DNA from: Squalus acanthias
Taxonomy: Eukaryota
DNA length: 64,000 bases
Assembly: GCA_030390025.1 (NCBI GenBank)
Contig: CM059431.1
Coordinates: 130,016,001-130,080,000 of the forward strand
Direction of reading: 5' to 3'
Part shown: piece after piece, positions 4,802-64,000 of the stretch
Position numbering within the stretch: the stretch's first letter is position 1
Layout: each line of letters begins with the position of its first letter
The notes under the pieces: generated by a model
What the model was told of the DNA's origin: nothing
Database searches by the model: none
The model's input: the letters and a program-made list of their open reading frames with translations, nothing else
Translations under genes and position numbers: made by a program

Positions 4802-4968
4802 CTGGGGTGGACAAAATTGAGAGGTCGCACAACACCAGGTTATAGTCCAACAGTTTTATTTGAAATCACAAGCTTTCGGAGCTTACTACTCCTTCGTCGG
4901 GCCCGGAGCTTGTGATTTCAAATAAAACTGTTGGACTATAACCTGGTGTTGTGCGACCTCTCAATTTT
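4802..4968. mobile_element. Penelope-like element terminal fragment in inverted (fold-back) arrangement
   Basis: Perfect 62-bp inverted arms 4813-4874 / 4907-4968; minus strand has hammerhead-like CCGACGA-A-GGAGT..GCTCC-GAAAGCTT; same family as 48880-49088. Confidence 0.75.
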
Positions 4969-15233: not shown

Positions 15234-16301
15234 GACACTGGGGATAACTCCCCTGCTCTTCTTCGAATCAGTGCCATGGGATCAGTGCCAGGGGATCTTT
15301 ACGTCTATCTGAGAGAGCAGACAGGACTTTGGTTTAATGTCTCATCCGAAAGACAGCACCCCCTCAATACTGCACTGGAGTGTTAGCCTAGATTTTATGC
15401 TCAAGTGTCTAGAGTAGGACTTGAGCCCACATCCTTCTTACTCAGAGGTGAGAATGCTACCATTGAGCCATGGCTAACACTCAGAGTTATGAGGATGAGT
15501 GGGTCCTGTCATGTTGAATGAATGAAGTAGGCTGTCACTGAAATTTAGAGCCTTCATTTTTATGCAAATGTTCGACAATTGGACAGCTAGAAAGTACTAC
15601 TATCAGAATATTCTGATTTTACAACCTAAAAGCTTATTCTCTTTCAAGCTACAGAGATTGTACCCTTAACCAGGAAAATTATGGATTCCATTCCCATTAC
15701 AATTTTGTCTCCAAAAGAAGTCAAAGTTTCCTATTTATACCAGACCTGAGGGTCTTGAACAGTTGCATCACAAGGAGCTGTCCAAATGTGGTAATTCAAT
15801 ATAGGGAAGCAAATTATAAGTATAATGTTCTCCCATAACCCCTGGCTTCAGCACTTACGCTGTTCACTAATTGCTTGTCAGTAATGGCAACGTTCCTCTG
15901 ATTGCTTCATTTCTACCCTTATGAAACAATTCATTCATTTGAGTTCCTTTTCAAAACTTTGGAAATAAAACAGTGGAGACATTTCTGTGCAGTTTCTTTA
16001 CCACAGCATCACTTCATGGCTTTTCAACTCAAAAGCTGACTGCTTCCAGCAAGATCTAGGAGTCAGGCTGATTGCTGTTTCCAGGTCTTGGCTGATGGCA
16101 GTCACTGACTTTTGAGATGAAATTATAGTGGCTAGGTTTTGTCCAATATTGCATGCTTCCTTCTGGAGACAGTATAATGTTGCCACTGTGTGTAGTACCT
16201 TGACTTCCTATGCAGAAAAAACTGAGGTTATTTTCTCAATCTAGGCAATTGTTTGTTTTATTTGATAACAAAACTTTATGCAAACCCATTACTAGACAAT
16301 A

Positions 16302-16491
16302 GCAAAATACTGCGGATGTTGGAAATCTGAAATAACAACAGAAAATGCTGGAAATACTCAGCAGGCCAGGCAGCATCTGTGGAGAGAGAAACAGAGTTAA
16401 CGTTTCAGGTCTGGGACCCTTCATCAGAACTGGAAAAAGCTGGAGATGTAACAGATATTAAGCAGGTGCAGAGACAGGGGGTGGGGGGCAG
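16302..16491 (-). mobile_element. Penelope-like element 3' (pLTR) fragment with 13-bp TSD
   Basis: TSD TTACTAGACAATA at 16289-16301 and 16492-16504; homologous to PLE sequence at 61433-61540. Confidence 0.85.
16395..16431 (-). ncRNA. Minimal type I hammerhead ribozyme motif (PLE-associated)
   Basis: Minus strand AGTT-CTGATGA-A-GGGTC-CCA-GACCT-GAAA-CGT-T-AACT: CUGANGA/GAAA core, stem II, palindromic ACGU helix III, 4-bp helix I. Confidence 0.7.
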
Positions 16492-16559
16492 TTACTAGAC
16501 AATACTTGCTATATAAATACAAACTGTTGTTGGTTATATGGCTGGGAAGTAGAAACAGG

Positions 16560-17703: not shown

Positions 17704-19949
17704 TAGGACATTCTTCTGTTCACCATTTAAAATAATCAGATTTAACAGTTTTGTTAAAATGGTGGAAAACATACATCATATGAGCATGTTAAATGTTCAT
17801 TCACTAATATTGTTCATTTCTAAGTTTATATTTCTTTGTGTTACATTTCTGTATTAAAGAACAGCTGGGAGATGCAAAAAACTCATTCTAATTATGTCTT
17901 AATCACCAAGTAGACAAGACAGTGATGAGTAATTTGTATGATTTCATTAAGCATAACTGTCTTGACCTATCTGTTCAAAATGGCAAGCTCAAAAGTGGCC
18001 TCAATTAATGAATGGAATTATTCTTTTATTTTTATTATTACTTTGCTTTGGTACAATTCATTTGTATATGAATGATGATGAATGTTCACCTGGGATGAAG
18101 CACATATTGATATTTCCTCTCTCCCTGTAAAGAAGATTAATGCCTAGCCTGTGGAACATTGATAACTCATCATGTGGGAAATTGTTGACATGAATCAATG
18201 TGATACCCCTCTAGGGCACAAGCCCAGACTTTCTGATTTTATTTTATATAAGCCAGGGTGGATTTTATACAGGATAAGTGGAAGTGTCCTGTTGGCACCA
18301 ATTTTCCAAGCTCAGCTCATTAGCATAGATGCGGATGGGCCTAGGAAGCACTGTTGTAGTGGGAGCAGAACATCGTGTGTAATTCAAATTTAAAGGAACG
18401 GGGACATATAAAGTGAGGTTTCACAGTTGTGGGGCAAAGATTCTCAGAGATGGCCTCAAAAGGCAGCTCAGCCTAAAAGCAGCTGAAGAGGCCGGAGACT
18501 GAGAACAGGCATGCAAAAATTAAGGGAAATTAACTCAAGGTGCAGGCGTGAGTCTGCAGGCAGGTGAAGATGCAGAGATGCAGCCAACACCCAAACCTCT
18601 GTCTGATGGCTACTGAAGAAGCAGTGGTGCTGCATCAGGTGCTTGTGAGGATGGTTGTCTGTTCTCTCTCACCATGGCACCATCTCCATAGGTCATGATT
18701 GCAGCATGCCAGCAAGAGGGTGGAGCCATGTTTCAAGCCACAGCTGACGATTTCTGTAATTGGATATATCAACCCTATTTACATTGTAGCTGCAGGTGTC
18801 CTTGTAGCACATTGCACAGCCCTGTATTTGCCTCATTGCTGACCCAAATCCTGTTTCTCATGGTCATTCCCAAGAAAATGTGTCAGGGCCTTAGTTTCTT
18901 GTCGCCCACGCTTCAAGGGAGCCAGTGGGAGTAAGGGTGAGTAAATGATGTGGAGCCAGCAGATGGGAGCAGGAGGCCATGGCCAGGGACCGGCCCTCGG
19001 CAGTCAGGTAAATGTTGGGAGGTGGGTGATTTCGATTGGAGGAGGGGTGTGGGAGGGAAGCATTAGGTTTCCTTTTGGGCCCTGAAGGGGCACTCCTGCT
19101 CCTCCTGGCCCCCAAGAAAAGTTTAAAAAATAAATTTTACTTCACTTTTTCCGCCCTCTTCTGGGCACTTGGCACCGAACATGGCTGTCCAGAGTTAAAA
19201 TATAGTTGGGATGAATGACGTCTTCAGACTCTGACTTTTGAACTTCAATGAGGCTGTTGTCTTCCTGGTGCAAGGGCCTCGCTGGCTAGCCAGAACATGC
19301 TAGTTAAAATAGCACATGGCACAAGTGAGTAGGTCACGGTAAGGATTTTAACCCTCCGCATGTCCCATTCTCGTCAGGTGGGGTTTTAAAATCAGAGTTC
19401 TTGGCCGGAATTTTCCCGCTGCTGGGTGTGCGGATTTGGAGGCGGGTTAGCAGTAAAAGTTGCAGAAATTGCGAGCGCGTCGGGAACCCGCCCTCATCAC
19501 ACCTCCTCGCGCCTTTAACTCCAGCGTGTTTGCCACGCGCCACAGGCCCGAACGGCAGAGGCGAGCAACCTAATTAAGCTTATTAAATCCATTTTTGTGA
19601 GACCCTTAACGGGGATTTTAACCAGAACATATGATTTTTATTGGATGACCACAGGAATAACACAGCTCGGGAACCTCGTCTGTCAACCTGAGGCGGAAGC
19701 TCAGTGGTCATTGAGCAAGGTCATTAATGCAGAGCATGGAAATCCAAATAAATACTTCCACCTGACACCTCACTACTTGCCTAAAGGAAGGCTGACTCCA
19801 TTTTGAGTACAGATTAGGGTGTCTAGAGTTTGCAAGTCTTTTCTGCAACCTCGGAAGCCACTCTCACCAGATTGCTGGTACTTATCACAACAATTGACAG
19901 ATTGGTCTTCTGATCTCTACTTGACCTGCCATCTATTACATCAGCACGG

Positions 19950-21155
19950 GTGCTGCTTATACTGTCTCACCTTGGTCCTCACAATCGGACCACGATGAGC
20001 CCCACCACCACCACCAGCAGCAGCAACAACACCACCACCACCACCACCAACCTTCTCCTCAACGACCTGATTCTCCACGGGACAGAGGACATCAGCGCAG
20101 GGCTGCAGCGCGCCGGAGGCGATACCCCCAACACAGGATATACAGGCAGAGGATGAGCTTCCTCAACATGACTGAGCAGCAGTGCCAAAGGAGGCTCAGG
20201 CTATTGCGCCAGGTCGTCGCAGACATTTGCAGCTTGCTGGAACAAGATCTGCCACCCAGAGGTCCTGGTGGACACACTTTACCAGTGGCTGTCAAAGTCA
20301 CCAGCCCTCAACTTCTTCGCCTCAGGGTCCTTCCAGGGATCTGCAGCAGACATTTGTGGCATCTCGCAGTCGGCTGCCCACAGATGCATCATACAGGTCA
20401 CCGATGCCATGTTTAATAAGTCAACCAATTATGTGAACTTTGCCACTGATGAAGCCAGTGTTAGTGAGCGTGTGCTTAGCATTGCCACTCTGGCTGGCTT
20501 CCCATGGGCGCAGGGCATCATCGACTGCACACACGTGGCCTTCAGGGCACCCCTACATCACCCAGGATTGTTTGTGAACCGCAAGGGCTTTCACTCCCTC
20601 ACTGGTCTGTAACCATAGGAAGATCATCATGCATGTGTGCGCTAAATTCCCTGCTGTCATGACTTTCGTCCTGCAGCAGTCCATCCTCAGCTCTTCGCAC
20701 CGCCAAACACACTTACTGGCTGGCTGCTTGGAGACGAGGGCTTTTCACTGAAGACGTGGCACCCCTGAGGAGGCCAAGCAATGAGGGTGAAGAGCATTAT
20801 AATGAAAGCCACATGTCCACCAGATGTGTCATTGAGCAAACAATAGGCATGCTGAAGATGCGTTTGAGATGTCTTGACAGATCTGGAGGAGCCCTTCAGT
20901 ACACACCAGTCAGGGTCTCCAGAATCGTCATTGTCTGCTGCGCACTGCACAATATAGCGCAGTAACGAGGATTAGAGCTGCATGAGGAGCAAGGCGCAGA
21001 GCGCACAGCCTCTTCAGAGAAGGAGAGGGAGGAGCATCAGCTAGAAGACGAGGAAGAGGAGCAGGAGGAAGCTGAGGTCCAGATGGCACCAGCACCGGAG
21101 TACGCTGCCACCCGGGGAGGACAGGGATGGCTTCATCATGGCCAGATTTACTTAA
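19950..21155 (+). pseudogene. Harbinger (HARBI1-like) DDE transposase, frameshifted
   Basis: Fragments [85 protein letters not shown] at ~21373. Confidence 0.9.
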
Positions 21156-28747: not shown

Positions 28748-29124
28748 ACTAAGAGAATGCATACGGGTGATGAGTTGATTTTTTGATATCACATTGAATG
28801 GATAGACGTATATAGGTGGATTGAAATGTTTGCTTTGTGGTGGCTTTTATTTCAGCATCGTGGCCAAGAGGACGTGTGATGGTCAGTAACAGATGATAAG
28901 GTGTGGGACAAATGTTGAAAGGGGAATTGGGGTTGTGGTCAATGGGACTGCAGGCGGATGATTCCATCCCAGATATTACGGCCACAAAGGGGTTGCCTGG
29001 GATGCATCCTTCCGTCTGCTTCCTCCTTTTCTGATTCCTCCTTTTCGGATTCCTTCTCTTCGGATTCCTCCTCTTCTGTGTCTTCCTCTTTCCTTTGCAA
29101 GCGGATGCTGTAAATGTGAAATGA

Positions 29125-29240
29125 CAGCACAAAATCCTGGAAATACTCAGCTGGTCAGGCAGCCTCTTGACCTGAGATGTGAAATCTGTTTTTCTCTCCA
29201 TGGATGTTGCCTGACCTGCTGAGTATTTGCAGCATGTTCT
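29125..29240. mobile_element. Older PLE pLTR fragments in inverted arrangement
   Basis: CTGGAAATACTCAGCTGGTCAGGCAGC followed by the reverse-complement-like GTTGCCTGACCTGCTGAGTATTTGCAG. Confidence 0.65.
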
Positions 29241-32200
29241 GTCTTCTCAAAGGCCTTCATTTACCTTCCGAGCCCTTGCAAGCATCCAGCAGCACTCACT
29301 ACACATTTGAAAAACTTTTAACATCTATTGCAGCAAGCCAGCACTTCAATAAAATCACAAAAACCCAAACTTACCTGAATGATGTGTCTGTCCCTTTAAG
29401 ACGTGCAGACATCGCCACTGTCAGCCTGCTTGCATGCCAGGTTAATCTGGCGTGCTTAAGACCCAGCGCTGAATTCAGCGCTAGGGTCGAAGTTTGCGCT
29501 TGTGACGTAAAGTCGGCATTGCATGCCAATTTACGTCACAACGCCGCCACTTTCTCCAGCATGGCGCTGCCAGTTACCAGCAGCGCAAAGGTAAGCACAA
29601 AAACGGCGGACGCCATGGGAACCACCAGCAGCTGCTGAAAGAGCGGCGGCGGCCGTTTTAGCGCCATTTAATGGTGCTACGGAGTGGCGCTCAGGCCACG
29701 AATTTCTAGCCCTTAGTGTTTAAAGATCACTGCAGAATAATCTGAGTTAGCCACTCTGTTTTGTAAACATGAATTTCTGGTTTGCACACTATTCAGAAAC
29801 TTGTCTTTAGATACTGCAAGTCATTAGTCACAAAGGAATTTCCTGTCATACATATTTCTAAATTAATTCTTTATATTTAAAAAAAAACACACCATATAGC
29901 ACACTTTAGACTGTTCCCTTTAGGGCAAATAGTTTTGACAGTTTAAATGAAAACCAGAAATTTCTGGCAACATATGGCTTTTACAGTTCAAATCTAAATC
30001 CACATAAACATTTCCGACCATCATTCAGAAAAATCTAGAGTTGAAGAACTTACATATATTTAGTGGACTTGTAAATGTATGTTGCATAAAACTAAAAGCT
30101 AATTTTTCTTTTAGAAGAATTTGTGTATCACTTGGTAAATATTTGTCTTCTACAACTGGACTCTTAAGAGCCCTGTTCAGCGTTATGGCCCCCTGTAGCT
30201 GCATGTCAGTCCAGACAGGGAGCCATTTAATTAGGTAATTCATGTCACATAGCAGTTAGGCCATCCAGCCTTCCGGGCAAAGAGCTTTCTGGATAACCTC
30301 CAGGGAGTCTGATAGCTTGAGACAGAATTATCCCATGGATACTAAGGTCTTGCAAAGGAAATTGTTTCCAGTAATCTTACAGAGCCGACTATTTGATTAC
30401 TATTTGGTATAGATAGGTAGTGAGATATTTCAACAGCTGCATTACGCAAATGTTAACCTGATATTAAAGCATCTTTTTTGCTGTCGGTTGCTGGTAAAAG
30501 TAAATTTAATGAGCATAATCTTTTGAAAGTAGTGTTAAAATTATAGGCAAGAGCAGGCAGTGAGACGGTAAGGAGGAGAAAAAATGAGGGTTACCACCCA
30601 TCTAGCAGTCATGTTTTCAAATAAGCTGCCTTGTAATCAGCTTTTAAAATCTGGGCAGTAAAAGTCCAGTTTTGGAGAGGGAGGAGAAGCATTCCAGAAG
30701 AAAAATTGCCCTGTGTAATCATAGTGCAAAAATACTTTGTGTAGTTCGCATTTGCAGACTAGCAGACCACAAGCAGGGGGCAAACAGCTTGTTTTGTGGT
30801 GTACTGACTCAGTGAACCCACACTTTGGAATGGGCAAATGCCAGTAATGGGTGACAGCTGTAGTTAGAGCGAGAGAAGGAGGGGTGCCTGGAAAGCATGA
30901 GCTGCTGTAGATTTGCCAAGTTCAAGAAAATTTCAGGCACCCAAGTGTAGTTGACGACCAGGCAGGAGTGAGTTTCTGGCAACATAACTTGAAGGTGCTC
31001 TTTTTAACTGCAGGCAAGCAAATGGTTAAAAAAATTAAAATCCAACAAAGTATGATCTAAAACATTATAGCACTTTTTTACAGCGTAAAAAGAGCATTCC
31101 TGCTCAGCACACAAATCATGTACATGGGTCTTCGATCAGCATAACACCCTCAAAGCTACTTTAAAATAATGATTTTTATTTCTGTTAAAAGAACTACATA
31201 CACAGTGGTTTCTTTTTATTGCTTAAGTTGCCATATTTTTAGTGCTGTCTTTGCCTGGACATATATTTTTCTATACTGCACTCTTGAGGCTTCTTACTAT
31301 ACCTCTTCAAAAGGCATATACCCTTCTACAGAGCCTTGTGCTTCCTGCTCTGGCTTTGGAATCTGCATACACATGATCTCCTAGGAAGAAAGATGTGGTT
31401 TTCAAATGGGGATAATTTTTATTCAATGTTAAAACTAGTTGCAAATATTTAATTTTATTATTTGGTTTGGAAGCTGTGACAAAGTGCTGCTGAAACCACT
31501 TTATAAATGATCTGCGTACCACCTTATCTGTCATGTTGGTAGGAATACTGGGTGGAATCAAATCTTTTTCTGCCTGGTGAGTCATGAGGACCATTACCCT
31601 AATTTTATTGTGGTAGATTTGACACATATCTCCTGCTGTTATTGGGAAGGACCCGGGTGCCAAAACAATCCAAGGCAGCCATCGTCTTGACAACCACTGA
31701 TAGCATGTAATGCTTGCATTTCCACCCATTCATTGTGCTGCAGGCTTTGGGCAGGCTCATGTTGATGTGTTTACTTTAGTCCCTCTAATATCCCAGGCAC
31801 AACATTCAACTGTACATGTAGCCAGAAACCTTGCTAAAAACAGGCTCCTTGCCATTGCCCTCAGCTTTACTTGCACACCATGAAGAACACTGCTGTACTC
31901 CTCAACGACATGAATATGGACTTTTCCAAATTAACTCTTACAACATCTTACAGCTCTAGTTGAGACAAACTTTATGAATTCTACCAGTGTGTGGAGCAGA
32001 TGTGCGCAATGTGTTTCACCCAGATGCTTGCTGTTTGTTACCGTGCATAGTGTATGTCTTCCACCTCCTTACTGTATGCTTCCTCTAAGAGTTTCTCCAT
32101 TTGGAAGAGGAAATTAGTGGATGGCTGCAGCATGCCAGTGTCTACCTCCAGGGATGGAGGTTCAGTACCTCCTTGTGCTAGGGCAGTAGTTAGCCCTCAA

Positions 32201-33048
32201 CTATGGGCGGCAGATATATCAATGTGGTGGCTGCCTGGGCATTGTACTATCGGGCACATCTGAGCATTTGAGTGGAATGGAGATACAGATGAGGCATTGC
32301 AGTAATATACATCTCCATCATTTGTGTCAGCTCTTGTCATTACCCTGCTGTTGGGCACTTCTTCAGCATGACCAAGATCTGTGCAGGAACATCTCAATAT
32401 CATTCCCTGACCTGGTGAATCCGGGCAAAACAGGCTGCTATAGATTGGAGTTCAAGATCTCTAGAGCTGCAGTCAAGAAAGCTATCACTCAGCTTATGAT
32501 CTCAGCAGAGGGCCCTGAAATGGCTGTGCTCTTCATGATGATCTGCTGCTCGGCCAGGCAGCACTGCACAGATTCAGGTTATAGACTCTTCCATAAGCAT
32601 CCCCCAAACTGTGCAGACTGCTTGGCACACTCTGAAATGACTGCATGAACTGCTGATGCTGAGCTACCAAGTTGAATTTGTAGGCAGGTCATATGAGGTC
32701 CAAATCTCTGGGCTCAGCTGCTGAAGGAGTGTTGATCTGGCCTTCCAGTCAGCAGGTTATATCTCCTCCAATTGCACCTGCACTTGTTTCTTGTCACTTG
32801 CGATCAGTAAAGCATAAGGTGACTTTCACCTGCAACTCATTAATGAGCTCCTTGGATTGGATGTATCTGAGCTGGTGCTTATATCTGCAGAGATGAGTGG
32901 TACAGGGTTCAAGGAAGTGCTGGATAAGAGCTCACATTCCCTTCTGGGGTCTCTTGGGAACGGATCGGATCAAGAAAAGACGATTTGTTACAATGCTGGT
33001 GGTAAGGCACCACTGCAAGCACAACTTATCTGGTAAGATATTGTAAGG

Positions 33049-33131
33049 AATAACAACAGAAAACATTGGAAAAACTCAGCAGGCCAGGCAGCATCCGTTA
33101 TTTCAGATTTCCAGCATCCGCAGTATTTTGC
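33049..33131. mobile_element. Tiny PLE insertion with internal inversion and 15-bp TSD
   Basis: TSD TAAGATATTGTAAGG at 33034-33048 and 33132-33146; two pLTR pieces in opposite orientation, both matching 16302-16380. Confidence 0.85.
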
Positions 33132-33889
33132 TAAGATATTGTAAGGTAAGGTAAGCATGTGTAACAGTAAATGAATGGGTGAGTAAGGATGAAAAAATAA
33201 TAAGTGAGGCATGTTACTATGGTAATAGCCCCTGACCTCCCCCTCCTCCACTCCCGCAATTGCCTCTATGTCCAGAACCTCCAAGGCCCGCTCCTCAAAA
33301 GGAATTGAGGGTTGCAGGCTAGGTGCCTTCTTCTCTGTCCATCCCTCACTCCCCTGCATTTGCTAGTGCCGGTTACATGTGGAATATGAGTGAAGTTATG
33401 TGTCACCTAAGTGTCCAGACTAATAGCCACTTTATGTGAGTTGTGCATATATGCAGCATGCAAGTACCTGAAGTGGTTAATATGCTCCATGTTTGTTGCT
33501 TGATACATTTCATGACAAATATCATAGTGACTGCAATCTTGGTAAAACACAGGTATGCCTGTCCATTTAGAAAGTACATGAACAGTTGCCAGAGTGCTAT
33601 GTATTCTTCCTCTTTGTTGCTACATCAAGCATGTTGCAAATTGCTGGTAACATTGTAAAGCAACATTGTAAAATGGGAATACTTGGCAACCTATCGGAAA
33701 TTTGGTACACGTGAGACAGCATTTAATAATTCTGGCATCTCTATGTGGTTGCATTGGTGCTGCCCTACACTGAAAGATAACCATCAGTTCTAAAAAGGAG
33801 CAATACCTCCAAAACTGCTTCATTGAATGGAGTTATTCTTTTCTCCCTCACTTTAGTTGCAGGGCAGTTTTAAGGGCAACTAGTAGCAT

Positions 33890-41790: not shown

Positions 41791-44700
41791 TGAAAGGAGA
41801 CGTCAGCCCCGGAGAGAAGGCAGAGGATAATTCAGAGCAGCTGAAGGCAGTTAATTAGGGAAACTAGATTAAACTGGTTTTCCTGTAGCAGGGCTCAGCC
41901 AACTCCCTTGTTTAAGGGCCTATAAAAACAGGCTTCGCAGTGCGGTTTGAACAGAATGCTGGGAGTTGGGTGAGTTAGGTGAGGAGTGGAAGGAGGAGCT
42001 CCCTTGCTTCGCCTTTGCTTTTCCTAAATTTTCACCCTGTAGGAATTAGTTCTTACTTTACACCCAGGAAAGAGTCCGAGAGCAGAAGCAGTCAAACAAC
42101 AACAACAACTGCAAAACCGCTAAAGTGACGTCACAACCAGGGAAGCAGCTGATTAGTAAGTAGGGCCTGGTGAGTAGTTCTACAGTCCAGTTGTTAAAGT
42201 AGAAGTAAGGTCTCTAGTTTAGAGTAAGTACTGTAGTGTATAAAGTGAATTAAGATCCCTAGTGTATTTAATATTCTTTAAGTTAGAGGAAGTAAAGGGA
42301 GTAAATTAAGGGTAGGACATGGCAGGGCAGCTCGGCAGCATGGAGTGCTCCTCCTGTGCTATGTGGGAAGTCAGGTACACTTTCGGTGTCCAGGGCAAAC
42401 ACATGTGCAGGAAGTGTCTCCAGCTGCAGCTACTCGAAATCTGCATTTCGGATCTGGAGCTGCGGCTGGAGTCACTGTGGAGCATCCGCAAGGCTGAGAT
42501 CTATGTGGATAGCACGTTTAATGAGGTGGTCACACTGCAGGTAAAGAGTGCACAGGCAGAAAGGGAATGGGTGACTGCAAGACAGAGTAAAAGAACTAGG
42601 AAGGTAGTGCAGGAGTCCCCTGGGTCCATCTCCCTCTCCAACAGATTTTCTGTTTTGGATACTGCTGGGGGAGATGGTTTCTCAGGGGAATGCAGCAAGA
42701 GCCAAGTCCGTGGCACTACGAGTGGCTCAGTTGCACAGGAGGGGAGGAAAAAGAGTGGGAGAGCAATAGTGATAGGGGATTCTATCGGAAGGGGAACAGA
42801 TAGACGTTTCTGTGGCCGCAGACGTGACTCCAGGATGGTATGTTGCCTCCCTGGTGCCAGGGTCAAGGATGTCACTGAACGGCTGCAGGGCAGTCTGAAG
42901 GGGGAAGGTGAACAGCCAGAGGTCGTGGTCCATATCGGTACCAACGACATAGGTAGAAAGAGGGATGAGGTCCTGCAAGCAGAATATAGGGAGCTAGGAA
43001 ATAAATTAAAAAGCAGGACCTCAAAGGTAGTAATCTCAGGATTACTCCCAGTGTCACGTGCTAGTGAGAGCAGAAATAGGAGAATAGACCAGATGAATGC
43101 GTGGCTGGAGAGATGGTGTAGGAGGGCGGGATTTAAATTCCTGAGACATTGGGACCGATTCTGGGGAAGGTGGGACCTGTACAAGCTGGACAGGTTACAC
43201 CTCGGCAGATCCGGGACCAATATCCTCACGGGGGTTTGCTAGTGCTGTTGGGAAGGATTTAAACTAGTTTGTCAGGTGGCTGGGAACCTAAGTGTGGGCC
43301 CAGAACGGAGAGCAACAAAAGTGGAAGTGCAAGTTAGAAAAGTAGTCAGCAAAACTAGTAGGGAGCAGAAACAAAGGCCAACAGTAAAGAGGGTCAAAGT
43401 GCAGAAAAATATTAAACAGGCTAAGTTAAAGGCACTTTATCTAAATGCACGTAGCATTCGCAACAAGGTGGATGAATTAATGACACAAATAGAAATAAAT
43501 GGGTATGATGTAATTGCCATTACAGAGACATGGTTGCAGGGTAACCAAAGCTGGGAACTGAATGTTCCAGAGTACTCAACATTTAGGAAGAACAGACAAA
43601 AAGGAAAAGGAGGTGGCGTAGTGCTGTTAATAAGGGAAGAGATCGGTACGGTAGAGATAAAAGATCTTGGCTTGGCAGATCGTGATGTAGAACTGGAATC
43701 GGTTTGGGTGGAGCTAAGAAACAGTGGAAAATGGAATATGAGCACAAACTAGCGAAAAATATAAAAACGGATTGTAAAAGCTTCTATAGGTATGTGAAAA
43801 GGAAAAGACTGGCGAAGGTAAATGTCGGTCCTTTACAGTCAGAGACGGGAGAATTTATAATGGGGAATGAGGAAATGGCGGAGAAATTAAATAAATACTT
43901 ACTTTCTGTCTTCACGGAGGAAGACACAAAAAACCTCCCAGAAGTACGAGAAAACCAAGGGTGTGGCGAGAATGAGGAACTTAAATAAATTATTATTAGT
44001 AAAAATACAGTACTAGCAAAATTAATGTGACTAAAAGTCGATAAATCCCAAGGACCGGATGACCTACATCCTAGGGTTTTGAAAGAGGTGGCCATTGGGA
44101 TAGTGAACGCATTGGTTGTCATCTTCCAAAATTCTACAGATTCTGGAACGGTTCCTGCAGATTGGAGGATAGCAAATGTAAACCCGTTATTTAAGAAAGG
44201 AAGGAGAGAGAAAACGAGGAACTACAGGCCTGTTAGTCTCACATCAGTAGTTGGGAAAATGCTGGAATCTATTATAAAGGATGCAATAACTGGGCACTTA
44301 GAAACTTAATAGTAAGATTGAGCAGAGTCAACATGATTTATGAAAGGGAAATCCTGTTTGACAAACCTATTGGAGTTCTTTGAGGATGTAACTAGTGGAG
44401 TAGACAAAGGGGAACTGGTAGATGTGGTGTATCTGGATTTTCAGAAGGCCTTCGATAAGGTCCCACACAAGAGGTTGGTGAACAAAATTGGGGGTAATAT
44501 ACTAGCATGGATTGAGAACTGGTTAACAGACAGAAAACAAAGAGTAGGGATAAACGGGTCTTTTTCAGGATGGCAGGCTGTGACTAGTGGGGTACCGCAA
44601 GGATCGGTGCTTGGGCCCCAGCTATTCACAATCTATATCAATGATTTGGATGAGGGGACTAAATGTAATATTTCCAAATTTGCTGATGATGCAAAGTTAG

Positions 44701-45607
44701 GTGGCAGTGTCAGTTATGAAGAGGATGTGAAGAGGCTTCAAGGGGATCTCGACAGGCTCAGTGAGTGGGCGAGAACATGGCAGATGGAATATAATGTGGA
44801 TAAATGTGAAGTTATCCACTTTGGTAGAAAAAACAGAAAGGCAGAGTATTTCCTAAATGGTAAAAGATTGGGGAATACAGATGCTCAAAAGGACCTGGGT
44901 GTCCTTGTACATGAGTCACTGAAAGTGAATGTGCAGGTGCAGCAAGCCATTAGGAAGGCAAATGGTATGCTGGCCTTCATTACAAGAGGATTTGAGTACA
45001 GGAATAAAGGAGTCTTACTCCAATTATATAGGGCCTTGGTGAGACCACACCTGGAGTACTGTGTACAATTTTTGGTCTCCTTACCTAAGGAAGGATATAC
45101 TTGCCATAGAGGGAGTGCAACGAAGGTTCACGAGATTGATTCCTGGGATGGCGGGACTGTCGTATGAGAAGAGATTGAGTAAACTAGGCCTGTATTCTCT
45201 TGAATTCAGAAGAATGAGAGGGGATCTCATTGAAGCATACAAAATTATTACAGGGCTTGATAGGGTGGATGCTGGGAGAATGTTTCCCTTGGCTGGGGAG
45301 TCTAGAACCAGGGGCCACAGCCTCAGGATAAAGGGTAGGCATTTCAGGACCGAGATGAGAAGAAATTTCTTCACACAGAGGGTGGTGAATCTTTGGAATT
45401 CTCTACCCCAGAGGGCTGTGGAGGCTCAGTCATTGGGTATATTCAGAACAGAAGTCGATATATTTCTGACTAGTAACGACATCAAGGGATATGGCGATAG
45501 GGCAGGTGAATGGAGTTGAAGCAGAAGATCAGCCATGATCTCATTGAATGGTGGAGCAGGCTCGAAGGGCCGAATGGCCTACTCCTGCTCCTATTTCTTA
45601 TTTTCTT
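41791..45607 (+). mobile_element. Near full-length CR1 LINE with internal ORF2 deletion, inserted in the Gypsy 3' LTR
   Basis: 5' UTR, ORF1, ORF2 pieces 43276-45519, conserved 3' tail; TSD AAACC (41786-41790 / 45608-45612). Confidence 0.95.
42319..43242 (+). CDS. CR1 ORF1p: CxxC..CxxC zinc finger, leucine zipper, SGNH/GDSL esterase domain
   Basis: 307-aa ORF with CSSCAMW..CRKC, VIGDSI, CCLPGARV, HIGTNDI, DRLHL motifs; last few codons probably frameshifted. Confidence 0.85.
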   Translation: MAGQLGSMECSSCAMWEVRYTFGVQGKHMCRKCLQLQLLEICISDLELRLESLWSIRKAEIYVDSTFNEVVTLQVKSAQAEREWVTARQSKRTRKVVQESPGSISLSNRFSVLDTAGGDGFSGECSKSQVRGTTSGSVAQEGRKKSGRAIVIGDSIGRGTDRRFCGRRRDSRMVCCLPGARVKDVTERLQGSLKGEGEQPEVVVHIGTNDIGRKRDEVLQAEYRELGNKLKSRTSKVVISGLLPVSRASESRNRRIDQMNAWLERWCRRAGFKFLRHWDRFWGRWDLYKLDRLHLGRSGTNILTGVC

Positions 45608-45759: not shown

Positions 45760-48547
45760 CTTTTAAATCAACTACAAATGCTACAAATGAACGACAAATC
45801 CAGTTTAATAACAGGTTTGCGGAGGTTTCCTGATCTCCTTACAAAAGGTTTTGGTGTTGAACCAATTTTGGGGCTGTTTTGTTCTGGTTCCGAACTCAAA
45901 GAAGCACGTACCACCACTCTGTTTTCCCACTTGATACAACCTTGCTCACAAGACAATTCAGTACGATGGTTATGGAATGGTTTCAACTCTGTGTCCAGAC
46001 ACTGATCAGTCCGTCCATTCAAGGTGTTTTCATACACTTTTCAGGACTGAGTCAATTGCATTGACAGGAAAGTCTTTGTCAACTGCACCTAGCGTGAAAA
46101 TCTCATCTTCACTCTCAACACGAGTCTTCATGTGGCAACCTGGACAAGGCATCTGCGATTGCGTTTTGCTTTGAAGTGCGATATTCAATCGTGTAGTCAT
46201 ATTGTGACAATAACACTGCCCAACGTTGCATTCTTGATGTGGCCATTGCAGGGATGGCAGATTTGGGCCCCAATATTGCTAGGAGCAGTTTGTGATCGGT
46301 TATCAGGGTAAACTTTCTGCCGATCAGGAATTGTTGGAATTTCTTGATTCCAAACACTATGGCGAGTGCTTCCTTTCCAATTTGCGCATAGTTTCTTTCG
46401 CTCTTTGTGAGGGTTCGTGATGCAAGTGCGATTGGTTTCTCTTTGTCATCATCCATTACGTGGCTTATGACAGCTCCCACACCATAGCTAGAAATATCAC
46501 ACTCTAATTTAAGCTCACGCTCTGTGTTGTAGTGCACAAGTAGAGCATCGCTAGGGAGACTTCTCACAAGCGTCGTAAGCTTCCTGTTTCACTGTTGTCC
46601 ACTTGCAGTGGACATCCTTCTTGAGGAGCTCGTGCAGTGGAGCTAACATGGTCACTAACTCAGGTAAGAATCGTGCGTAGTACTGGACCATTCCAAGGAA
46701 AAATCTTAACTCAGACACGTTCTGTGGCTTTAGAGCATTGATGACAGCATCAACCTTTTCCTTAACTGGTTGCAAACCATTTGCATCAACTTTCAGACTA
46801 AGATACACAACCTCAGGCTGCACAAAAGCACATTTGCTCCTTTTCAATTTGACATTGGGGGAATTCAACATTTGAAGCACTAAATCTAACACTTCTAGAT
46901 TTTCTTCTTCGCTGTTTGTTGCGATCAGCGCATTGTCTTGATTGCATAAGCAATTTGGAACTCCTTGCAAAATCTTATCCATCATAGCCTGGAAGATTTT
47001 GCTCATCGTCAACTGCTTGGTTGATAGTAACTTTGTAGTCACCGCACAAGCGTACAGTTTTGTTTGCTTTGGGCACTATCACGATCGGGGTATCCCATTC
47101 ACTTTTGTCAGTATTTACTAGCACTCCATTCTCTCTGTTTCTCTAGCTCTTCCTCTACCTGACTTTTCAACGAATAGGGGACCGGCCTATGCATTGGACT
47201 TGATGCAGATATGTGCGTCATACCCAGTGGTGCCTTCATAACTGTCTGAGAACATGCTTTCATACTTGTTCAGCATTGTGTCGAGTCGCTACTTTGAAGC
47301 ATCTACACTGAAGATGTTTTTCCAGTAGAGTTTTAACTTTCTCAACCAGTCTTTGTCCATGAGGGTTGGCCTGTTGTTGTAGCTTGCTACAATAATGGGC
47401 AGCTTTACTGACTGGCCATTGTGTTGAACTGTACAGTCCATTTGTCAACATGTCTCTAGGATTCCTCCGGAGTAGGTTTTTAACTCTACGGTACTCTTTG
47501 TAAGCGGTATTTTATTAAACTTAGTCTCATATGTGTCATTACTCATGATAGAGCAGTCCGCCGCCATGTCGTTACACATATTGCTCGTTGATCAAAAGTT
47601 TTGTACGGAAGTCTTTCTCACGACTGCTGGTGTGCCCGCTAGTGGCTTAGATACTGTAGATGCCTAGTCTTCAACATCAGGTGTGTTCACTTCAATATTG
47701 TGAATTCCTCCCTTTTGTTGTCGCTGCTTTGCATTGCCACTAGAATGGTTCTTACTTCCTGCTTTCAATCTAGCTCTGCAAGCTGTTGAAATATGGCCTT
47801 GCTTCTGGCAGCGAAAACACTTCACATTTCTGTATTGGCAGGACTGTGGTGAATGATTTCCATTGCAGCGATAACAATTCACTGAACTGCTCTCACTGAC
47901 ATGCTTTTGACTTGGTCTCACAGCTTTAGGTTTGGCAGTGACTTTGTGACTGTAGACCTCAGCTGCACTAGTCACTTGAGTTGGATGGAGCTCCCTAGTA
48001 TTCTTCGACGCCATCTCCATAGATAGGGCAATTTTGCATGCTATGTCAAACGTTGGGTTCGGAGTGTTCAGTAATTTGGACTGTGTGCGCTCATCCATCA
48101 GTCCACACACAAACTTACCTCGCAACGCACAATCCAAGTTACAATGCAAAGACAGGTTTTTAAGATCTACAATGTACTCACTGATTGTTTTACTTTCTTT
48201 TTGGTTTCTGGTATCAAATTTATATCTACTATTTCTAATCGCTTTGGGTCAAAATGGTCCTCGAGTTTCTCGACAATGTCTTCAAACGACACATCCTTCG
48301 CTCTCCCTGGCGCGAATAGGTTTGTCAATGTTCTGTAGACATCTGGCCCGATCTCCATTAGAAAAATTTGTTTTTTTATGTTCACAGATTACTTTATTTT
48401 GAGCTTGAATATTCTCATCCGCACCTTCGGTCTCAATAATGTTATTGGCTTAAAAAACATCTCCGTCTGCTCAATGTAAGAACTGAATGGTTCGCGAGAT
48501 TGGTCATACATGCCAAGGCTTCCGATGAATCCCACAGGCGCGGCCAT
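45760..48547 (-). pseudogene. Gypsy gag-pol remnant (gag with tandem zinc knuckles, RT, RNase H; integrase not seen)
   Basis: MAAPVGFIGSLG start; CYRCNGNH..CFRCQKQGHISTAC; IFQAMMDKILQG, FLGMVQYYARF; YGVGAVISH..YAQIGKEALAIVFG..ADALSRLP. Confidence 0.88.
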
Positions 48548-48879
48548 GATTGTCCCGATCCCGTTGAACAGTGACTCAGCACGCTACCTGTGTACCTGTG
48601 AGAATCAATGCCGCTGTTTCTGTGTATACATACACACGAAGGCGAAGCACAGATGATTCTGCATCAGCATTAACAGTAAAACATTGCAAAAAATTCAGTT
48701 TAGATGCCACAAATTCACCTTAAACTTTTCCACTTGAAGGTTGAACACTGTGTCTTTCCATGATCCCTAAAAATGGTTTTGGGATCCCATTCTCATCGCT
48801 AAAAATGTAATATATGTGGGTAGAACAAATGAAGGACAGAGACAGGATGAGTCGCTAGTCCATGTGCATGCTTTACTAG

Positions 48880-49088
48880 ATTGAGTGGTCGCACAACACC
48901 AGGTTATAGTCCAACAGTTTTATTTGAAATCACAAGCTTTCGGAGCTATCGATTTGCTCCTTCCTCAGGAAGGAGCAAATCGATAGCTCCGAAAGCTTGT
49001 GATTTCAAATAAAACTGTTGGACTATAACCTGGTGTTGTGCGACCTCTCAATTTTGTCCACCCCAGTCCAACACCGGCATCTCCGCAT
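48880..49088. mobile_element. PLE fold-back insertion with 13-bp TSD inside the Gypsy 5' LTR
   Basis: Palindrome 48880-49052 centred on 48966; TSD CATGCTTTACTAG (48867-48879 / 49089-49101); minus strand CTGAGGA-A-GGAGC..GCTCC-GAAAGCTT. Confidence 0.88.
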
Positions 49089-49787
49089 CATGCTTTACTA
49101 GGCCAGAGCAAACTGAGCATGCTCATACCAAACCATGTGATAATACATTACATAGGGGAATGATGCAGCCAATTTGCACACAGCAATTTCCTGGAAACAG
49201 AAATGAGATGAATGATAAGATAATCTTTTTTAGTGATGTTGGTTGAGATATAAATATCGGCCAGGACACCAGAACTTCCGTGCTCTTTAAATTGTCCCAT
49301 GGGATCTTTCACATCCGCCTAAGAGGGCAGAAGGGGCCTCGGTTTAACGTGTCTTCCGAAAAGAGAGCAACTCTGATAGTGTGGCACTCCCTAGTACTGC
49401 ACTGAAGTGTCAGCCTGGATTAAATCTCTGGAGTGGGATTTGAACCCACAACCTTCTCACTTGGAGTACTACCACTGTCCCAAGACTAACATTTAATACA
49501 GTGAAAGTTCCTCTATTTCTATGCTTGTGATGCATTAGTTTATTTTTTCCCTGAAAACTGCTTTCCCTTTTCTAGCTTTCTGTGTTAGCTGTTACTTTGA
49601 CTCTGATAACTTCCGTACAAGAAATAGAACATTTGTACAAAGTTAAACCTTGGTTAGTAGTTTTCTGGATATGAAAAAAATCTAATTCTAAATCCATTGT
49701 GAATGCCAGTTTGAAGCAATGCTTAACATAGGTTGAACATTTAAACTTTTTTTGATGAACATGTCAGTGGCTGGAGTCTTGTCCTCG

Positions 49788-57900: not shown

Positions 57901-59858
57901 GAAGAAGTGTGAGATCTGAGTGGGAGCAGACCGAGGCCCGAGAGTGGGGATAAAAGCAGCAGCGGACCTGCAACTACAAGAGAAAACTACAGTGTAACGT
58001 CACAGGTAAGGCAGGTAAGTGATTGGTAGTGACTGTGGGCTAAGTTTTAAGTTAACATATAGCATATAACTTTTTTTTAAACTAAACTTAATTTAATTAA
58101 TTTAATAAACTAAACGAGGTAAATAATTTGATGTAACACTGAACTAATTCATTAAATAAATAAATAAAATAATGGGAGACCAGGAGATGTGTTGCTGCTG
58201 CAATATGTGGGACATTTTTGTCCAGGGTGACTACATCTGCGGTAAGTGTCTGCAGCTCGAGGAACTGCGGCTCCGAGTTGAGGAGCTGGAGTCCGAACTG
58301 CAGACATTACGAGACATCAGGGAGGGAGAAAGTTACCTGGACCTTTTGCTCCAGGAGGCAGCCACACCCCTTAGATTAAATACTGTATAATTGACACGTG
58401 GTCAGGGACAGGAGGGTGTGACTGCGAGTGAGGCAGGTACGGGGATCCAGGAGGTAGTATTGCAGGAGCCTCAGTCCCTGCACTTGTCCAATAGATTCGA
58501 GGTTCTTGCAACCCTTGTGGACGAGTGTGGGGACTGCGGGGAGGACGAGCAAACTGACCACGGCACCGTGGTACAGGAAGCCGTTCAAGTGGGGGAGTAA
58601 AAAGGAAGGTGGTTGTAGTAGGCAACAGTATAGTTAGGGGGATAGACACTGTTATCTGCAGCTAGGATCGTGAGTCCTGAATGCTATGTTGCCTTCCTGG
58701 TGCCAGGGTAAAGGACATCTCCTCCGGGCTAGAGAAGAACTTGGAGTGGGAGGGGGAGGGTCCAGTTGTCGTGGTCCACGTAGGTACCAACGACATAGGT
58801 AGGACTAAGAAAGAGGTTCTGCTGAGAGAGTTTGAGCAGCTAGGGACTAAATTAAAAAGCAGAACCACAAAGGTAATAATCTCTGGATTATTACCTGAGC
58901 CATGAGCAAATTGGCATAGGGTCAATAGGATCAGGGAGATGAATGCGTGGCTCAAAGATTGGTGTGGGAGAAGTAGGTTTCAATTCGTGGGGCACTGGCA
59001 CCAGTACTGGGGAAAGAGAGAGCTGTTTCGTTGGGACGGACTACACCTGAACCATGCTGGGACCAGAGTTCTAGCGAATCGAATAACTAGGGAGGTAGAT
59101 AGGGCTTTAAACTAAATAAGTGGGGTGTGGGGGGGGGGGGGGGAGGGTCCCGGTGGAGAGAAATCTAGAATGCTAAAGAGAAAAGACAAGGAAGCAGTGC
59201 AGGAAAGGGATTGGGGTAAGGATAACTAGATTGTGTCAGGAAGGGGCAGAGCGTACAAACAAAAGAGTGCACTAACAAATAGGGTCCGGGTAAGAAAAAA
59301 TGAAAAGACAAATAGGGCCATAGTACAAAAAAATGTTAAGATGTCTAAAAATGTTAAAAAGACAAATCTAAAGGCACTGTATCTGAATGCACGAAGCATT
59401 TGGAATAAGGTAGATGAATTAACAGCGCAAATAGATGAAAACGAATATGATATAATTGCGATTACGGAGACATGGCTGCAGGGTGACCAAGGCTGGGAGC
59501 TGAATATTATAGGATATTCGGTATTTAGGAAGGACAGGCAAAAAGGAAAAGGAGGTGGAGTGGTGTTGTTCGTAAAGGATGAAATCAGAGCAATAGTGAG
59601 AAAGGATATTGGCTCAGAAAATCAAGATGTAGAATCAGTCTGGGTGGAGCTAAGAAGCACCAAGGGGCAGAAAACATTGGTGGGAGTTGTATAAAGGCCT
59701 CCAAACAGTAGTGGTAATGTAGGGGATGGCATCAAACAGGAAATTAGAGGTGCATGTAACAAGGGTACTACAGTAATCCTGGGTGACTTTAATCTACGTA
59801 TAGACTGGCCAAACCAAATTAGCTGTGGAGGATGAATTCCTGGAGTGTGTATGAGATG

Positions 59859-60086
59859 GTTTTTTAGACCAGTACGTTGAGGAGCCAATGAGGGAACAGG
59901 CTAGATTGGGTATTGTGCAATGAGAAGGGGTTAATTAATAATCTTGTTGTGCGGGGTCCTTTAGGGAAGAGTTTTTTAGACCAGTACGTTGAGGAGCCAA
60001 TGAGGGAACAGGCTAGATTGGGTATTGTGCAATGAGAAGGGGTTAATTAATAATCTTGTTGTGCTTTAGGGTCCTTTAGGGAAGAG
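59859..60086. repeat. ~112-bp tandem duplication within the CR1 endonuclease region
   Basis: GTTTTTTAGACCAGTACGTTGAGGAGCC...CCTTTAGGGAAGA at 59859-59970 and 59971-60085. Confidence 0.92.
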
Positions 60087-61432
60087 TGACCATAACATGA
60101 TAGAATTCTTCATTAAGATGGAAAGTGAAGTAGTCCAAGCCGAAACTAGGGTCCTAAATCTAAAAAAAGGAAACTACGAAGGTATGAGGAGAGAGTTGGC
60201 TATGATAGATTGGGGAGCTTCATTAAAAGGCATGATGGTGGATAGGCAATGGCTAACATTTAAGGAACGAATGCATGAATTGCAACAGTTATACATTCCT
60301 TTCTGGCACAAAAACACAAAAGGAAAAGCGGCCCAACCATGGCTAACAAAAGAAATTAAGGATAGTATTAGATCCAAAGAGGAGTCATATAAAGTTGCCA
60401 GAAAAAGTAGCAAGCCTGAGGATTGGGAGCAGTTTAGAATTCAGTAAAAAAAGGACCAAGAGATTGATTAAGAGAGGAAAAATAGAGTATGAGAGTAAAC
60501 TTGCAAGGAACATAAAAGCGGATTGTAAAAGCTTCTACAAGTATGTAAAAAGAAAAAGATTAGTGAAGACAAATGTAGATCCCTTACAGTCAGAAATGGG
60601 AGAATTTATAATGGGGAACAAGGAAATGGCGGAGCAATTAAACAAATACTTTAGTTCTGTCTTCACGGAAGAGGACACAAATAACTTCCCAGAAATGCTA
60701 AGGAACCAAGGGCCTAGTGAGAAGGAGGAATTAAAGGAAATTAGTATTAGTAAAAAAAATAGTGCTGGAGAAATTGATGGGACTGAAAGCCGATAAATCC
60801 CCAGGGCCTGATAATCTGCATCCCAGAGTACTAAAAGAGGTAGCCATGGAAATAGTGGATGCATTGGTTGTCATCTTCTAAAATTCTATAGATTATGGAA
60901 CAGTTCCTGCAGATTGGAGGGTGGCATATGTAACCCCACTATTTAAAAAAGGAGGGAGAGAGAAAACAAGGAACTACACACATCATCAGTAGTAGGGAAA
61001 ATGCTAGTGTCTATTATAAAGGATGTGATAACAGGACACTTAGAAAATATCAATGGGATTAGACAAAGTCAACATGGATTTATGAAAGGGATATCGTGTT
61101 TGACAAACCTACTGGAGTTTTTTGAGGATGTAACTGGTAGAATAGATAAGGGAGAACCAGTGGATGTGGTGTATTTGGATTTTCAGAAGGCCTTTGATAA
61201 AGTCCCACATAAGAGGTTAGTGTGCAAAATTAAAGCACATGGGATTGGGCGTAATATGCTGACATGGATTGAAAATTGGTTAACAGACAGGAAACAGAGA
61301 GTGTAAATAAATGGGTCTTTTTCGGGGTGGCAGGCGGTGACTAGTGGGGTACTGCAGGGATCAGTGCTTGGGCCCCAGCTATTCACAATATATATCAATG
61401 ATTTGGATGAGGGAACCAAATGTAATATTTCC

Positions 61433-62733
61433 TAAATAACAACAGAAAACGCTGGAAAAACTCAGCAGGCCAGGCAACATCCGTGGAGAGAGAAAGAGAG
61501 TTAACGTTTCAGGTCGAAACCCTTCGTCGGAACTGAGAGAGCAAGAAATAAACAGATAAAAATGCAAGGGGGAGGCTGGGGGGAGGAATAAAAGAACAAA
61601 AGGGATGGTCTTTAGTGAGTAGAGACATTGAGAGATGCTCAAGGCAAGACGAGATGGTAATGGGACAGGTTGAGAAACAAAAGGTAAGGTGTGAAATGCT
61701 GGCAGAATCAGAGACAGCTGCCGTGGGGGGAGAGAGAGAAAAAAAGGAAAAAGGCACGGACCAAAAGAGTGGATAAAATGTATACATATATGGTAGGGGC
61801 CGGGGTTATGATCTGAAATTGTTGAACTCGATATTGAGTCCGGAAGGCTGTAAAGTGCCTAAACGGAAGATGAGGTGCTGTTCCTCGAGCTTACGCTGCG
61901 CTTCCGTGGAACAATGCAAGAGGCCGAGGACGGTGAGGTCTGAGTGAGCGTGGAGGGGTGAATTAAAATGACAAGCGACCGGAAGCTCGGGGTCAACCTT
62001 CCGGACTGAACGGAGGTGTTCCGCAAAGCGGTCATCCAATCTGCGCTTGGTCTCCCCAATGTAGAGGAGACCACATCGTGAGCAGCGAAAGTGGTCTCCT
62101 CTACATTGGGGAGACCAAGCGCAGATTGGGTGACCGCTTTGCGGAACACCTCCGTTCAGTCCGGAAGGTTGACCCCGAGCTTCCGGTCGCTTGTCATTTT
62201 AATTCACCCCTCCACGCTCACTCAGACCTCACCGTCCTCGGCCTCTTGCATTGTTCCACGGAAGCGCAGCGTAAGCTCGAGGAACAGCACCTCATCTTCC
62301 GTTTAGGCACTTTACAGCCTTCCGGACTCAATATCGAGTTCAACAATTTCAGATCATAACCCCGGCCCCTACCATATATGTATACATTTTATCCACTCTT
62401 TTGGTCCGTGCCTTTTTCCTTTTTTTCTCTCTCTCCCCCCACGGCAGCTGTCTCTGATTCTGCCAGCATTTCACACCTTACCTTTTTGTTTCTCAACCTG
62501 TCTCATTACCATCTCGTCTTGCCTTGAGCATCTCTCAATGTCTCTACTCACTAAAGACCATCCCTTTTGTTCTTTTATTCCTCCCCCCAGCCTCCCTCTT
62601 GCATTTTTATCTGTTTATTTCTTGCTCTCTCAGTTCCGACGAAGGGTTTCGACCTGAAACGTTAACTCTCTTTCTCTCTCCACGGATGTTGCCTGGCCTG
62701 CTGAGTTTTTCCAGCGTTTTCTGTTGTTATTTA
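61433..62733. mobile_element. Penelope-like element 3' portion (GIY-YIG C-terminus + pLTR), two head-to-head copies
   Basis: RCSRCGLLYIGETKRRLGDRFAEHLRSV..PVACHFNS..RKLEEQHLIFRLGTLQPSGLN; pLTR shared with 16302-16491. Confidence 0.93.
62632..62667 (+). ncRNA. Hammerhead-like motif with CCGACGA variant core (mirror copy 61499-61534, minus)
   Basis: AGTT-CCGACGA-A-GGGT-TTCG-ACCT-GAAA-CGT-T-AACT. Confidence 0.55.
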
Positions 62734-64000
62734 GGAAATATTACATTTGGTTCCCTCATCCAAATCATTGATATATATTGTGAATAGCTGGGGCCCAAGC
62801 ACTGATCCCTGCAGTACCCCACTAGTCACCGCCTGCCACCCCGAAAAAGACCCATTTATTTACACTCTCTGTTTCCTGTCTGTTAACCAATTTTCAATCC
62901 ATGTCAGCATATTACGCCCAATCCCATGTGCTTTAATTTTGCACACTAACCTCTTATGTGGGACTTTATCAAAGGCCTTCTGAAAATCCAAATACACCAC
63001 ATCCACTGGTTCTCCCTTATCTATTCTACCAGTTACATCCTCAAAAAACTCCAGTTTGCTGACGCCACAAAACTAGGTGGGATTGTGAGTTGTGAGGAGG
63101 ATGCAATGAGGCTTCAAGGCGATTTAGACAAGTTGAGTGATTGGGCAAATACATGGCAGATGCAGTATAACGTGGATAAATGTGAAGTTATCCACTTCGG
63201 TAGGAAAAACAGAAAGGCAGAGTATTATTTAAATGGTGATAGATTGGGAAATGTTGATGTACAAAGGGACCTGGGTGTCCTTGTACACCAGTCACTGAAA
63301 GCAAACATGCAGGTGCAGGAAGCAGTTAGGAAGGCAAATGGTATGTTGGCCTTCATTGCAAGAGGATTTGAGTACAGGAGCAAGGATGTCTTACTACAGT
63401 TATACAGGGTCTTGGTGAGACCACACCTGGAGTACTGTGTGCAGTTTTGGTCTCCTTACCTAAGAAAGGATATACTTGCCATAGAGGGAGTGCAGCGAAG
63501 ATTCACCAGACTGATTCCTGGGATGGCAGGACTGTCGTATGAGGAGAGATTGGGTCGACTCGGCCTGTATTCACTAGGGTTTAGAAGAATGAGAGGGAAT
63601 CTCATTGAAATGTATAAAATTCTGACTGGGCTAGACAGACTGGATGCAGGGAGGATGTTTCCCCTGGTTGCGGAGTCTAGAACGAGGGGTCACAGTCTCA
63701 GGATACGGAGTAGGACATTTAGGACTGAGATGAGGAGAAATTTCTTCACTCAGAGGGTGGTGAACCTGTGGAATTCTCTACCACAGAAGGCTGTGGAGGC
63801 CAAGTCACTGAGTATATTTAAGAAGGAGATCGATAAATTTCTAGACGCAAAAGGCGTGAAGGGATATGGGGAGAGAGCGGAAATATGGTATTGAGATAGA
63901 GGATCAGCCATGATCATATTGAATGGCGGAGCAGGCTCGAAGGGCCGAATGGCCTACTCCTGCTCCTATTTTTCTATGTTTCTATGGGGAGGTTAGTCTG

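Follow-up and report, generated by a model that had tools for sequence, protein, structure and literature searches.

A Penelope-like insertion in a palindrome that includes its host flank in Squalus acanthias

The palindrome and the closest described systems

Penelope-like elements (PLEs) that carry an endonuclease are described as inserting in a characteristic form, with a 5'-truncated copy, an adjacent inverted copy, a tail of 30-40 bp at one end and an optional target-site duplication (TSD) (PMC3846280, PMC8557442). The main text of PMC3846280 explains their head-to-head palindromes by self-priming with an antisense strand as template, and that of PMC8557442 calls the process making the inverted copies undefined. 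Here we present an analysis of a window of 64,000 nt from contig CM059431.1 of Squalus acanthias (all coordinates are positions in this window), in which a PLE inserted into a CR1-type long interspersed nuclear element (LINE) lies in a near-perfect palindrome of about 1.95 kb. On the whole, each arm consists of a 5'-truncated, tail-less PLE end together with 322 nt of the host LINE.

The left arm covers 61111-62074 (964 nt) and the right arm 62091-63055 (965 nt), with a loop of 16 nt between them, in accordance with the coordinates and anatomy proposed in an earlier note on this DNA. Among the 26 inverted pairs lying at most 3 kb apart in the window these arms are by far the longest, the runner-up having arms of 91 nt, and DNA folding predicts a long stem at the palindrome centre when it is single-stranded. 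The left arm begins with the primer-side flank (61111-61432, plus strand), the putative template for the outer right arm, which is 100% identical to the reverse complement of 62734-63055, while the other CR1 copies in the window match it at 67-86%. It is followed at the PLE 3' junction by one extra base (61433, plus strand) that matches neither the sibling PLE at 16330 nor the CR1 copies and is mirrored at 62733. The left PLE copy (61434-62089, minus strand) is truncated at its 5' side inside the GIY-YIG endonuclease, after which come a stop, a 3' region with a hammerhead-like motif and a tail-less boundary. The asymmetric loop (62075-62090, plus strand) contains 15 nt of natural PLE sequence present in the left arm only and one non-family A at 62090. 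The PLE extent of 61433-62090 given before is thus broadly right, except that its two end bases are foreign to the family and the PLE-matching part is 61434-62089. The second, inverted PLE copy (62091-62733, plus strand, including the mirrored junction base) is 99.4% identical to the left one, and it continues into the inverted duplicate of the 322-nt CR1 flank (62734-63055, minus strand), as identified by the arm alignment and by comparison with CR1 copies. At the exit, the microhomology reads TCCAGT (63050-63055, plus strand), where TCC are the last three bases before the insertion and AGT the first three after it; the earlier note had placed the rejoining at the same site with AGT only (63053-63055), so the shared stretch is longer than was claimed.

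The arm alignment turns the "about four" differences noticed by eye into exactly four, comprising three transitions (left/right: G/A at 61569/62597, G/A at 61663/62503 and T/C at 62035/62130) and a single-nucleotide indel in a homopolymer run near 61678/62487. All four lie within the PLE portion and none within the 322-nt CR1 portion.

The host LINE is found on both sides of the palindrome in the plus strand. Its upstream part (58144-61432, the 5' start being approximate) is decayed by frameshifts and stops and is colinear with the other copies, and its downstream part (63053-63986) reaches the 3' end and resumes without a TSD. Pfam matches are a weak OSK/GDSL-like one at 58681-58902, Exo_endo_phos at 59230-59691 and RVT_1 at 60947-61303, corresponding to traces of an esterase-like ORF1 (ORF, open reading frame), an AP endonuclease and a reverse transcriptase (RT). 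We take the element to be a CR1 from this order of domains rather than from a tree. The blast comparison with the copies at 43728-45606 and 12065-14399, which are continuous across the split, shows that the LINE is interrupted after 61432 and continues from 63053-63055, bearing out the interruption and rejoining points proposed earlier; the resumption is within one base of the insertion point. Two side observations concern CR1. The host copy has a near-perfect 112-bp tandem duplication (59859-60087) 1 kb upstream of the palindrome, and elsewhere two CR1 3' ends, 5418-6248 and 11007-11839, are 98.7% identical over 834 nt while their flanks differ, so that they probably represent a young subfamily.

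Judged by its sequence, the insert is a 5'-truncated, endonuclease-positive PLE in a cartilaginous-fish-like genome. The minus strand of 61434-62089 codes for the end of a GIY-YIG endonuclease, where the domain is truncated and the match to PF01541 is weak (E=0.025, 15.3 bits against a cut-off of 22.6). At E<=1e-10, 21 of 119 candidate proteins are homologs of the insert, the best being from skate, rays and whale shark, and the C-termini of two homologs align back to it by tblastn with 61-66% identity. The RT part is absent from this truncated copy; two homologs, P0003 and P0004, have upstream of the endonuclease a YIDD motif which we presume to be RT-like. Core words of a hammerhead are present by eye in the PLE 3' region, with CCGACGA in place of CTGA(T/C)GA, and the minimal-hammerhead-like motif is placed by comparison with the sibling at 16330 at 62636-62664 (plus strand, core CCGACGA ... 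GAAAC), mirrored in the left arm. Rfam at gathering score gives no match across the window, hammerhead included, and folding of three hammerhead-like regions as monomeric RNA gives no hammerhead fold; minimal PLE hammerheads are described as dimers in PMC4209133. The CCGACGA variant of the core is observed in two different PLE families, at 62636-62642 and at about 4895-4901. The inverted 5'-truncated copy beside the 5' end, a PLE trait, is present here and in four of five sibling insertions. The 30-40 bp tail is absent on both arms and is carried by the same family at 16302, 29101 and 33097; since the tail is treated as optional in the literature, its absence does not remove PLE membership.

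Compared with the canonical PLE insertion, the locus is alike in its head-to-head layout, its short asymmetric or palindromic turn, the GIY-YIG domain at the ORF end and the tail-less boundary. It differs from the insertions presented in those two sources in that both arms are tail-less, a TSD is missing, and the inverted arm goes on beyond the 3' junction to take in 322 nt of flank, while in the canonical unit the inverted arm is confined to the element and a TSD is often found. A second system to be compared is R2, for which cDNA snap-back is a named class of junction in PRINT insertions (PMC11371274, PMC11204384). As these texts outline it, the cDNA 3' end primes synthesis on its own cDNA before joining the other target end, and the palindrome has the same succession of cDNA end, antisense cDNA and other target end as a sequence, from which we infer the order of events. 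The R2 junctions, however, come from engineered insertions in human cells seen in short reads, with priming on cDNA or nearby rDNA, and run-through over the whole cDNA into the primer-side flank is not described in the snap-back passages of these two sources.

For L1, insertions with a local inverted duplication have been reported as 3 plus 1 events of 52-220 bp (PMC10191854), inverted flank duplications or foldbacks also appear in Figs 4-5 of 10.1101/2024.12.14.628481, and templated flank insertions under 250 bp are given in 10.1101/2024.08.27.596794. What the main texts of these sources have in common with our locus is a retrotransposition-coupled inverted duplication of a few hundred target bases and priming by a small hairpin. 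The L1 inverted duplications as described there occur at the reciprocal (5'-side) end, keep the TSD and leave the cDNA unduplicated, whereas here the primer-side flank and the cDNA are duplicated and no TSD is found; the foldbacks of the primary RT end are tied, in the cases presented, to translocations or triplications and not to local repair. Ordinary small inverted duplications in human, with a median of 284 bp and mostly 1-15 bp of microhomology according to the main text of PMC12350158, are similar in size class and in their microhomology joints, but here both joints are fixed at the 5' end of a retroelement and at its insertion point. In PMC4245944 and PMC2718515, the closest cases in the text consulted are flank-derived 5' extra bases and small target rearrangements. 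Within the open-licence main-text literature we found no whole-cDNA mirror arm reaching into the primer-side flank with local repair, which may exist elsewhere, and no description of a flank-inclusive PLE palindrome; two motif scans of metagenome contigs returned no locus each. The novelty supposed for the idea is reduced: the geometry is undescribed for PLEs in the literature found, and it is not a new kind of system, R2 snap-back and L1 inverted flank duplications being known.

Junctions and a possible order of events

The three joints of the palindrome carry most of the evidence on its origin. At the 3' joint the PLE ends at position 171 of the 16330 reference, about 30 nt before the tail of that sibling, and the same tail-less boundary is seen in the arm at 33049 (about position 170 of the reference). 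Both features of this joint, the tail-less end and the extra base 61433, are mirrored at 62733. Because the second arm shares this extra base and the local flank, its template must have been DNA in which the PLE 3' end was already attached to the target; in other words, the joint anatomy shows that the second arm reproduces, at the DNA level, the completed 3' junction and its local flank.

At the turn, we compared the locus with contigs of four public runs (three of organism A from two samples and one of organism B, with 42,341-92,399 contigs each). The family contigs diverge after 62089 in all four runs, and 62090 is not the next base of the family. A cDNA ending at 62088 has in its minimum-energy DNA fold a 4-bp terminal hairpin pairing 62076-62079 with 62085-62088, whose register predicts the start of the mirror to within 1 nt; of 589 possible cDNA ends, 23 are predicted to have a comparable short hairpin at the terminus. 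The palindrome turns just where the PLE is truncated at its 5' side, and its exit lies no more than 1 nt from the insertion point. At the exit stands the single occurrence of the hexamer TCCAGT in 2001 nt of upstream flank, where TCC alone occurs at 74 of 2001. The target point has one A fewer than the family CR1 copies, which was either lost at the insertion or missing from this CR1 copy beforehand. A TSD scan at the palindrome gives none at the junctions and just matches of 6-8 nt displaced from them.

The best explanation, and in our estimate a modestly probable one, is that PLE cDNA snapped back, that synthesis ran through into the flank, and that the end rejoined the target by microhomology. 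It would begin with a nick at 61432. Target-primed reverse transcription would set out from the left end of the target at the internal tail-less site of the element and stall after about 656 nt. The cDNA 3' end would then fold into the 4-bp hairpin at 62076-62088 and prime DNA synthesis on itself, leaving, as the junction anatomy suggests, AA where one T would be templated. The tail-bearing partner arm, which in the siblings is on the other target end, would here be absent or not captured, and synthesis would consequently enter the flank for 322 nt, by strand displacement or over a resected gap. Finally, TCC(A)GT may have let the end anneal across the cut site, with the would-be 13-bp duplication trimmed. 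Candidates for the synthesising polymerase are the RT of the element or a host enzyme such as Pol theta. In support of this order of events, both arms share the tail-less end, the extra junction base and a flank identical to the local CR1.

Several points weigh against it. With a looser hairpin rule of three Watson-Crick pairs, 74 of the 589 ends qualify, and the turn junction reads AA and not the single templated T, showing that the snap-back register is imperfect. The TCCAGT test is partly post hoc, its independent half being TCC (the 74 of 2001). The four arm differences are all in the PLE part and none falls in the outer 458 nt, as a later copying of the flank would predict, though the spread of 4/643 in the PLE against 0/322 in the flank is not significant (Fisher p=0.31). 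Among the matches listed from the four runs, none of the 32 contig pieces crosses the turn or the exit, the multi-copy repeat signal being dominant. Besides, only one locus is concerned. The fold-back model of the earlier note accordingly keeps its turn at the PLE 5' truncation, its DNA-templated copying through the 3' junction and its return by microhomology, all in line with the junction anatomy, while its view that the flank was copied during integration, as opposed to a later template switch, is not established.

Sibling insertions and alternative origins

Blast and motif searches of the window detect five further PLE insertions belonging to two families, which show what is usual in this region. 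Four of them are head-to-head (4802-4968, 29101-29242, 33049-33133 and 48875-49088) and one is single-armed (16302-16491), so that five of the six PLE insertions have the head-to-head layout. A 13-bp TSD is present in three of the five siblings (16302, 33049 and 48875), and TSD scans at 4802 and 29101 find none at the junctions. The head-to-head siblings carry the tail on one arm only and mirror the flank in no case, leaving the palindrome as the only one of six that does; hence the claim that PLE integration in general can create inverted duplications of host sequence is not established by the window.

Individually, the one-armed stub at 16289-16504 has a full tail and the 13-bp TSD, and served as reference for the family 3' end. 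The tiny insertion at 33035-33145, also with a 13-bp TSD, has a tail-less and a tail arm that meet at a 2-nt microhomology. Its tail-less arm corresponds to reference 121-170 and its tail arm to 165-201; because the two barely overlap, neither was copied from the other, and it is likely, as far as the sequence of the arms can tell, that both target ends were primed on RNA from two start sites. This pattern of two 3' ends fits the anole PLE in vitro, which according to the main text of PMC11167929 cuts both strands, extends each of them and has two start sites that bound the tail. The palindrome PLE starts at the internal site like the left arm at 33049, but without a tail arm. The insertion at 48867-49101 represents the second family, head-to-head with 91-nt arms, a 13-bp TSD and a tail that is carried by the right arm; it turns where the hammerhead-like core begins, within a natural quasi-palindrome, and the tail-less arm extends a few bases further 5'. 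The insertions at 4802-4968 and 29101-29242 are head-to-head PLE stubs, and the two arms at 29101 each have sequence that the other lacks.

The main rival to the snap-back explanation needs two steps, namely an ordinary head-to-head PLE insertion, with a 13-bp TSD and the tail borne by the right arm, and a later template switch that replaced the tail and the TSD. We consider this course possible but somewhat unlikely. It takes the local norm of head-to-head layout as its starting point, and long palindromes are prone to template switching; it also fits the restriction of all four arm differences to the PLE part, although, as stated above, this unevenness is not significant. With a copy of the TSD in place, the same TCC(A)GT microhomology would be available, and this course explains the exact exit equally well and without coincidence. 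Its cost is that two events are required and that no remnant of tail or TSD is left.

A further alternative is breakage followed by replication or fusion, where the cDNA-extended end would remain unjoined into S phase, and either sister ends would be fused head to head or a hairpin-capped end replicated; after a break or resection 322 nt inside the flank, one copy would then be joined to the target at its reciprocal end. It would yield the same sequence, the asymmetric loop included, and the part of 10.1101/2024.12.14.628481 dealing with L1 foldback junctions at the primary RT end puts such a route forward for them. The L1 foldback cases given in that source, however, came with translocations or triplications, whereas here the reciprocal end was rejoined locally within 1 nt and with microhomology spanning the cut, which suggests a short-lived intermediate, and we regard this origin as unlikely. 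In the snap-back, the two-step and the replication or fusion explanations alike, the turn dates from the insertion.

An artefact of assembly or library, whether from a chimeric read formed by fold-back or from high-copy repeats wrongly joined, is in our view very unlikely, and the locus is probably real, a single-locus variant of known retrotransposon junction chemistry. The region is built wholly of high-copy repeats and has the near-perfect 112-bp tandem duplication 1 kb upstream, both of which would favour an artefact. In addition, among the pieces listed from the public runs no contig or read spans the palindrome joints. In Logan contigs, 20 of the 24 rows listed contain part of 62050-64000, and the best runs contain a fraction of 0.73-0.76 of its sampled words. 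Missing words do not show absence, since contigs drop rare variants inside repeats. On the other side, the break points are at biologically defined positions (the element 5' end with its hairpin, and the target site with its microhomology), the duplicated flank is the local copy, and a fold-back read would not rejoin the correct downstream base. Moreover, the three substitutions are all transitions, with derived states apparently present on both arms. In the four runs, almost the entire depth at 62503 has the left-arm base, so the right arm appears derived; at 62035, the left arm encodes Asp where the right arm and all four homologs compared have Gly, so the left arm appears derived. For 62597 the contig variant table has no row, which hints weakly at a derived left arm, the table being incomplete in that a private change visible near 63065 is not listed. 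Derived alleles on both arms suggest mutation after the duplication rather than one molecule read twice. The opposite-strand joint 62734/63053 appears in all four runs as the uninterrupted CR1 form; we do not count it as an empty allele, because any copy of the CR1 family can produce it.

The weakest alternative, RNA-level or pre-integration self-priming (on an antisense template, as the main text of PMC3846280 has it for PLE palindromes) or two independent cDNAs, is highly improbable here. In its favour, a pair of arms each primed on RNA accounts for the sibling at 33049 and perhaps for 29101, and differences confined to the PLE would fit two templates. Neither origin, however, can give 322 nt of target flank and the same extra base without a further DNA-templated step, and RNA-level self-priming as sole cause is excluded by the extra junction base and local flank in the second arm.

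Returning to the snap-back explanation, a wider form of it can be put forward tentatively, as a thing that may be so but is less likely than not: priming at both target ends from the two start sites of the element would be the norm, the snap-back sense strand of one cDNA would capture the other, the present locus would be a run-through that lacked its partner, and PLEs would recurrently make palindromes of host DNA in vertebrate genomes rich in them. If the locus is such a partnerless run-through, it exposes a hidden DNA-templated step of PLE integration. The mirror arm includes the flank of the target itself and must therefore have had DNA with the 3' end already attached as its template, so that a flank-inclusive mirror arm is a countable genomic footprint by which the DNA snap-back model can be tested; the palindrome also gives a prediction for the in vitro PLE system whose main text (PMC11167929) was drawn on above. 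If common, such events would be a further source of kilobase-sized palindromes made of host DNA. At present the case comprises a single locus, situated in repeats and without a demonstrated effect.

Other features of the window

The view of the earlier note that the palindrome is a source of cruciforms or dsRNA is not established, and the ORFs of at least 150 aa in the window include none recognisable as a host exon. A candidate near 19925 seems to be the remains of a transposase, and the broken frames at 19925-21150, with a His/Gln-rich stretch upstream, resemble a Harbinger-type transposase. On the minus strand, the ORF remains at 46118-48248 resemble what we take to be gag-pol of a long terminal repeat (LTR) retrotransposon.

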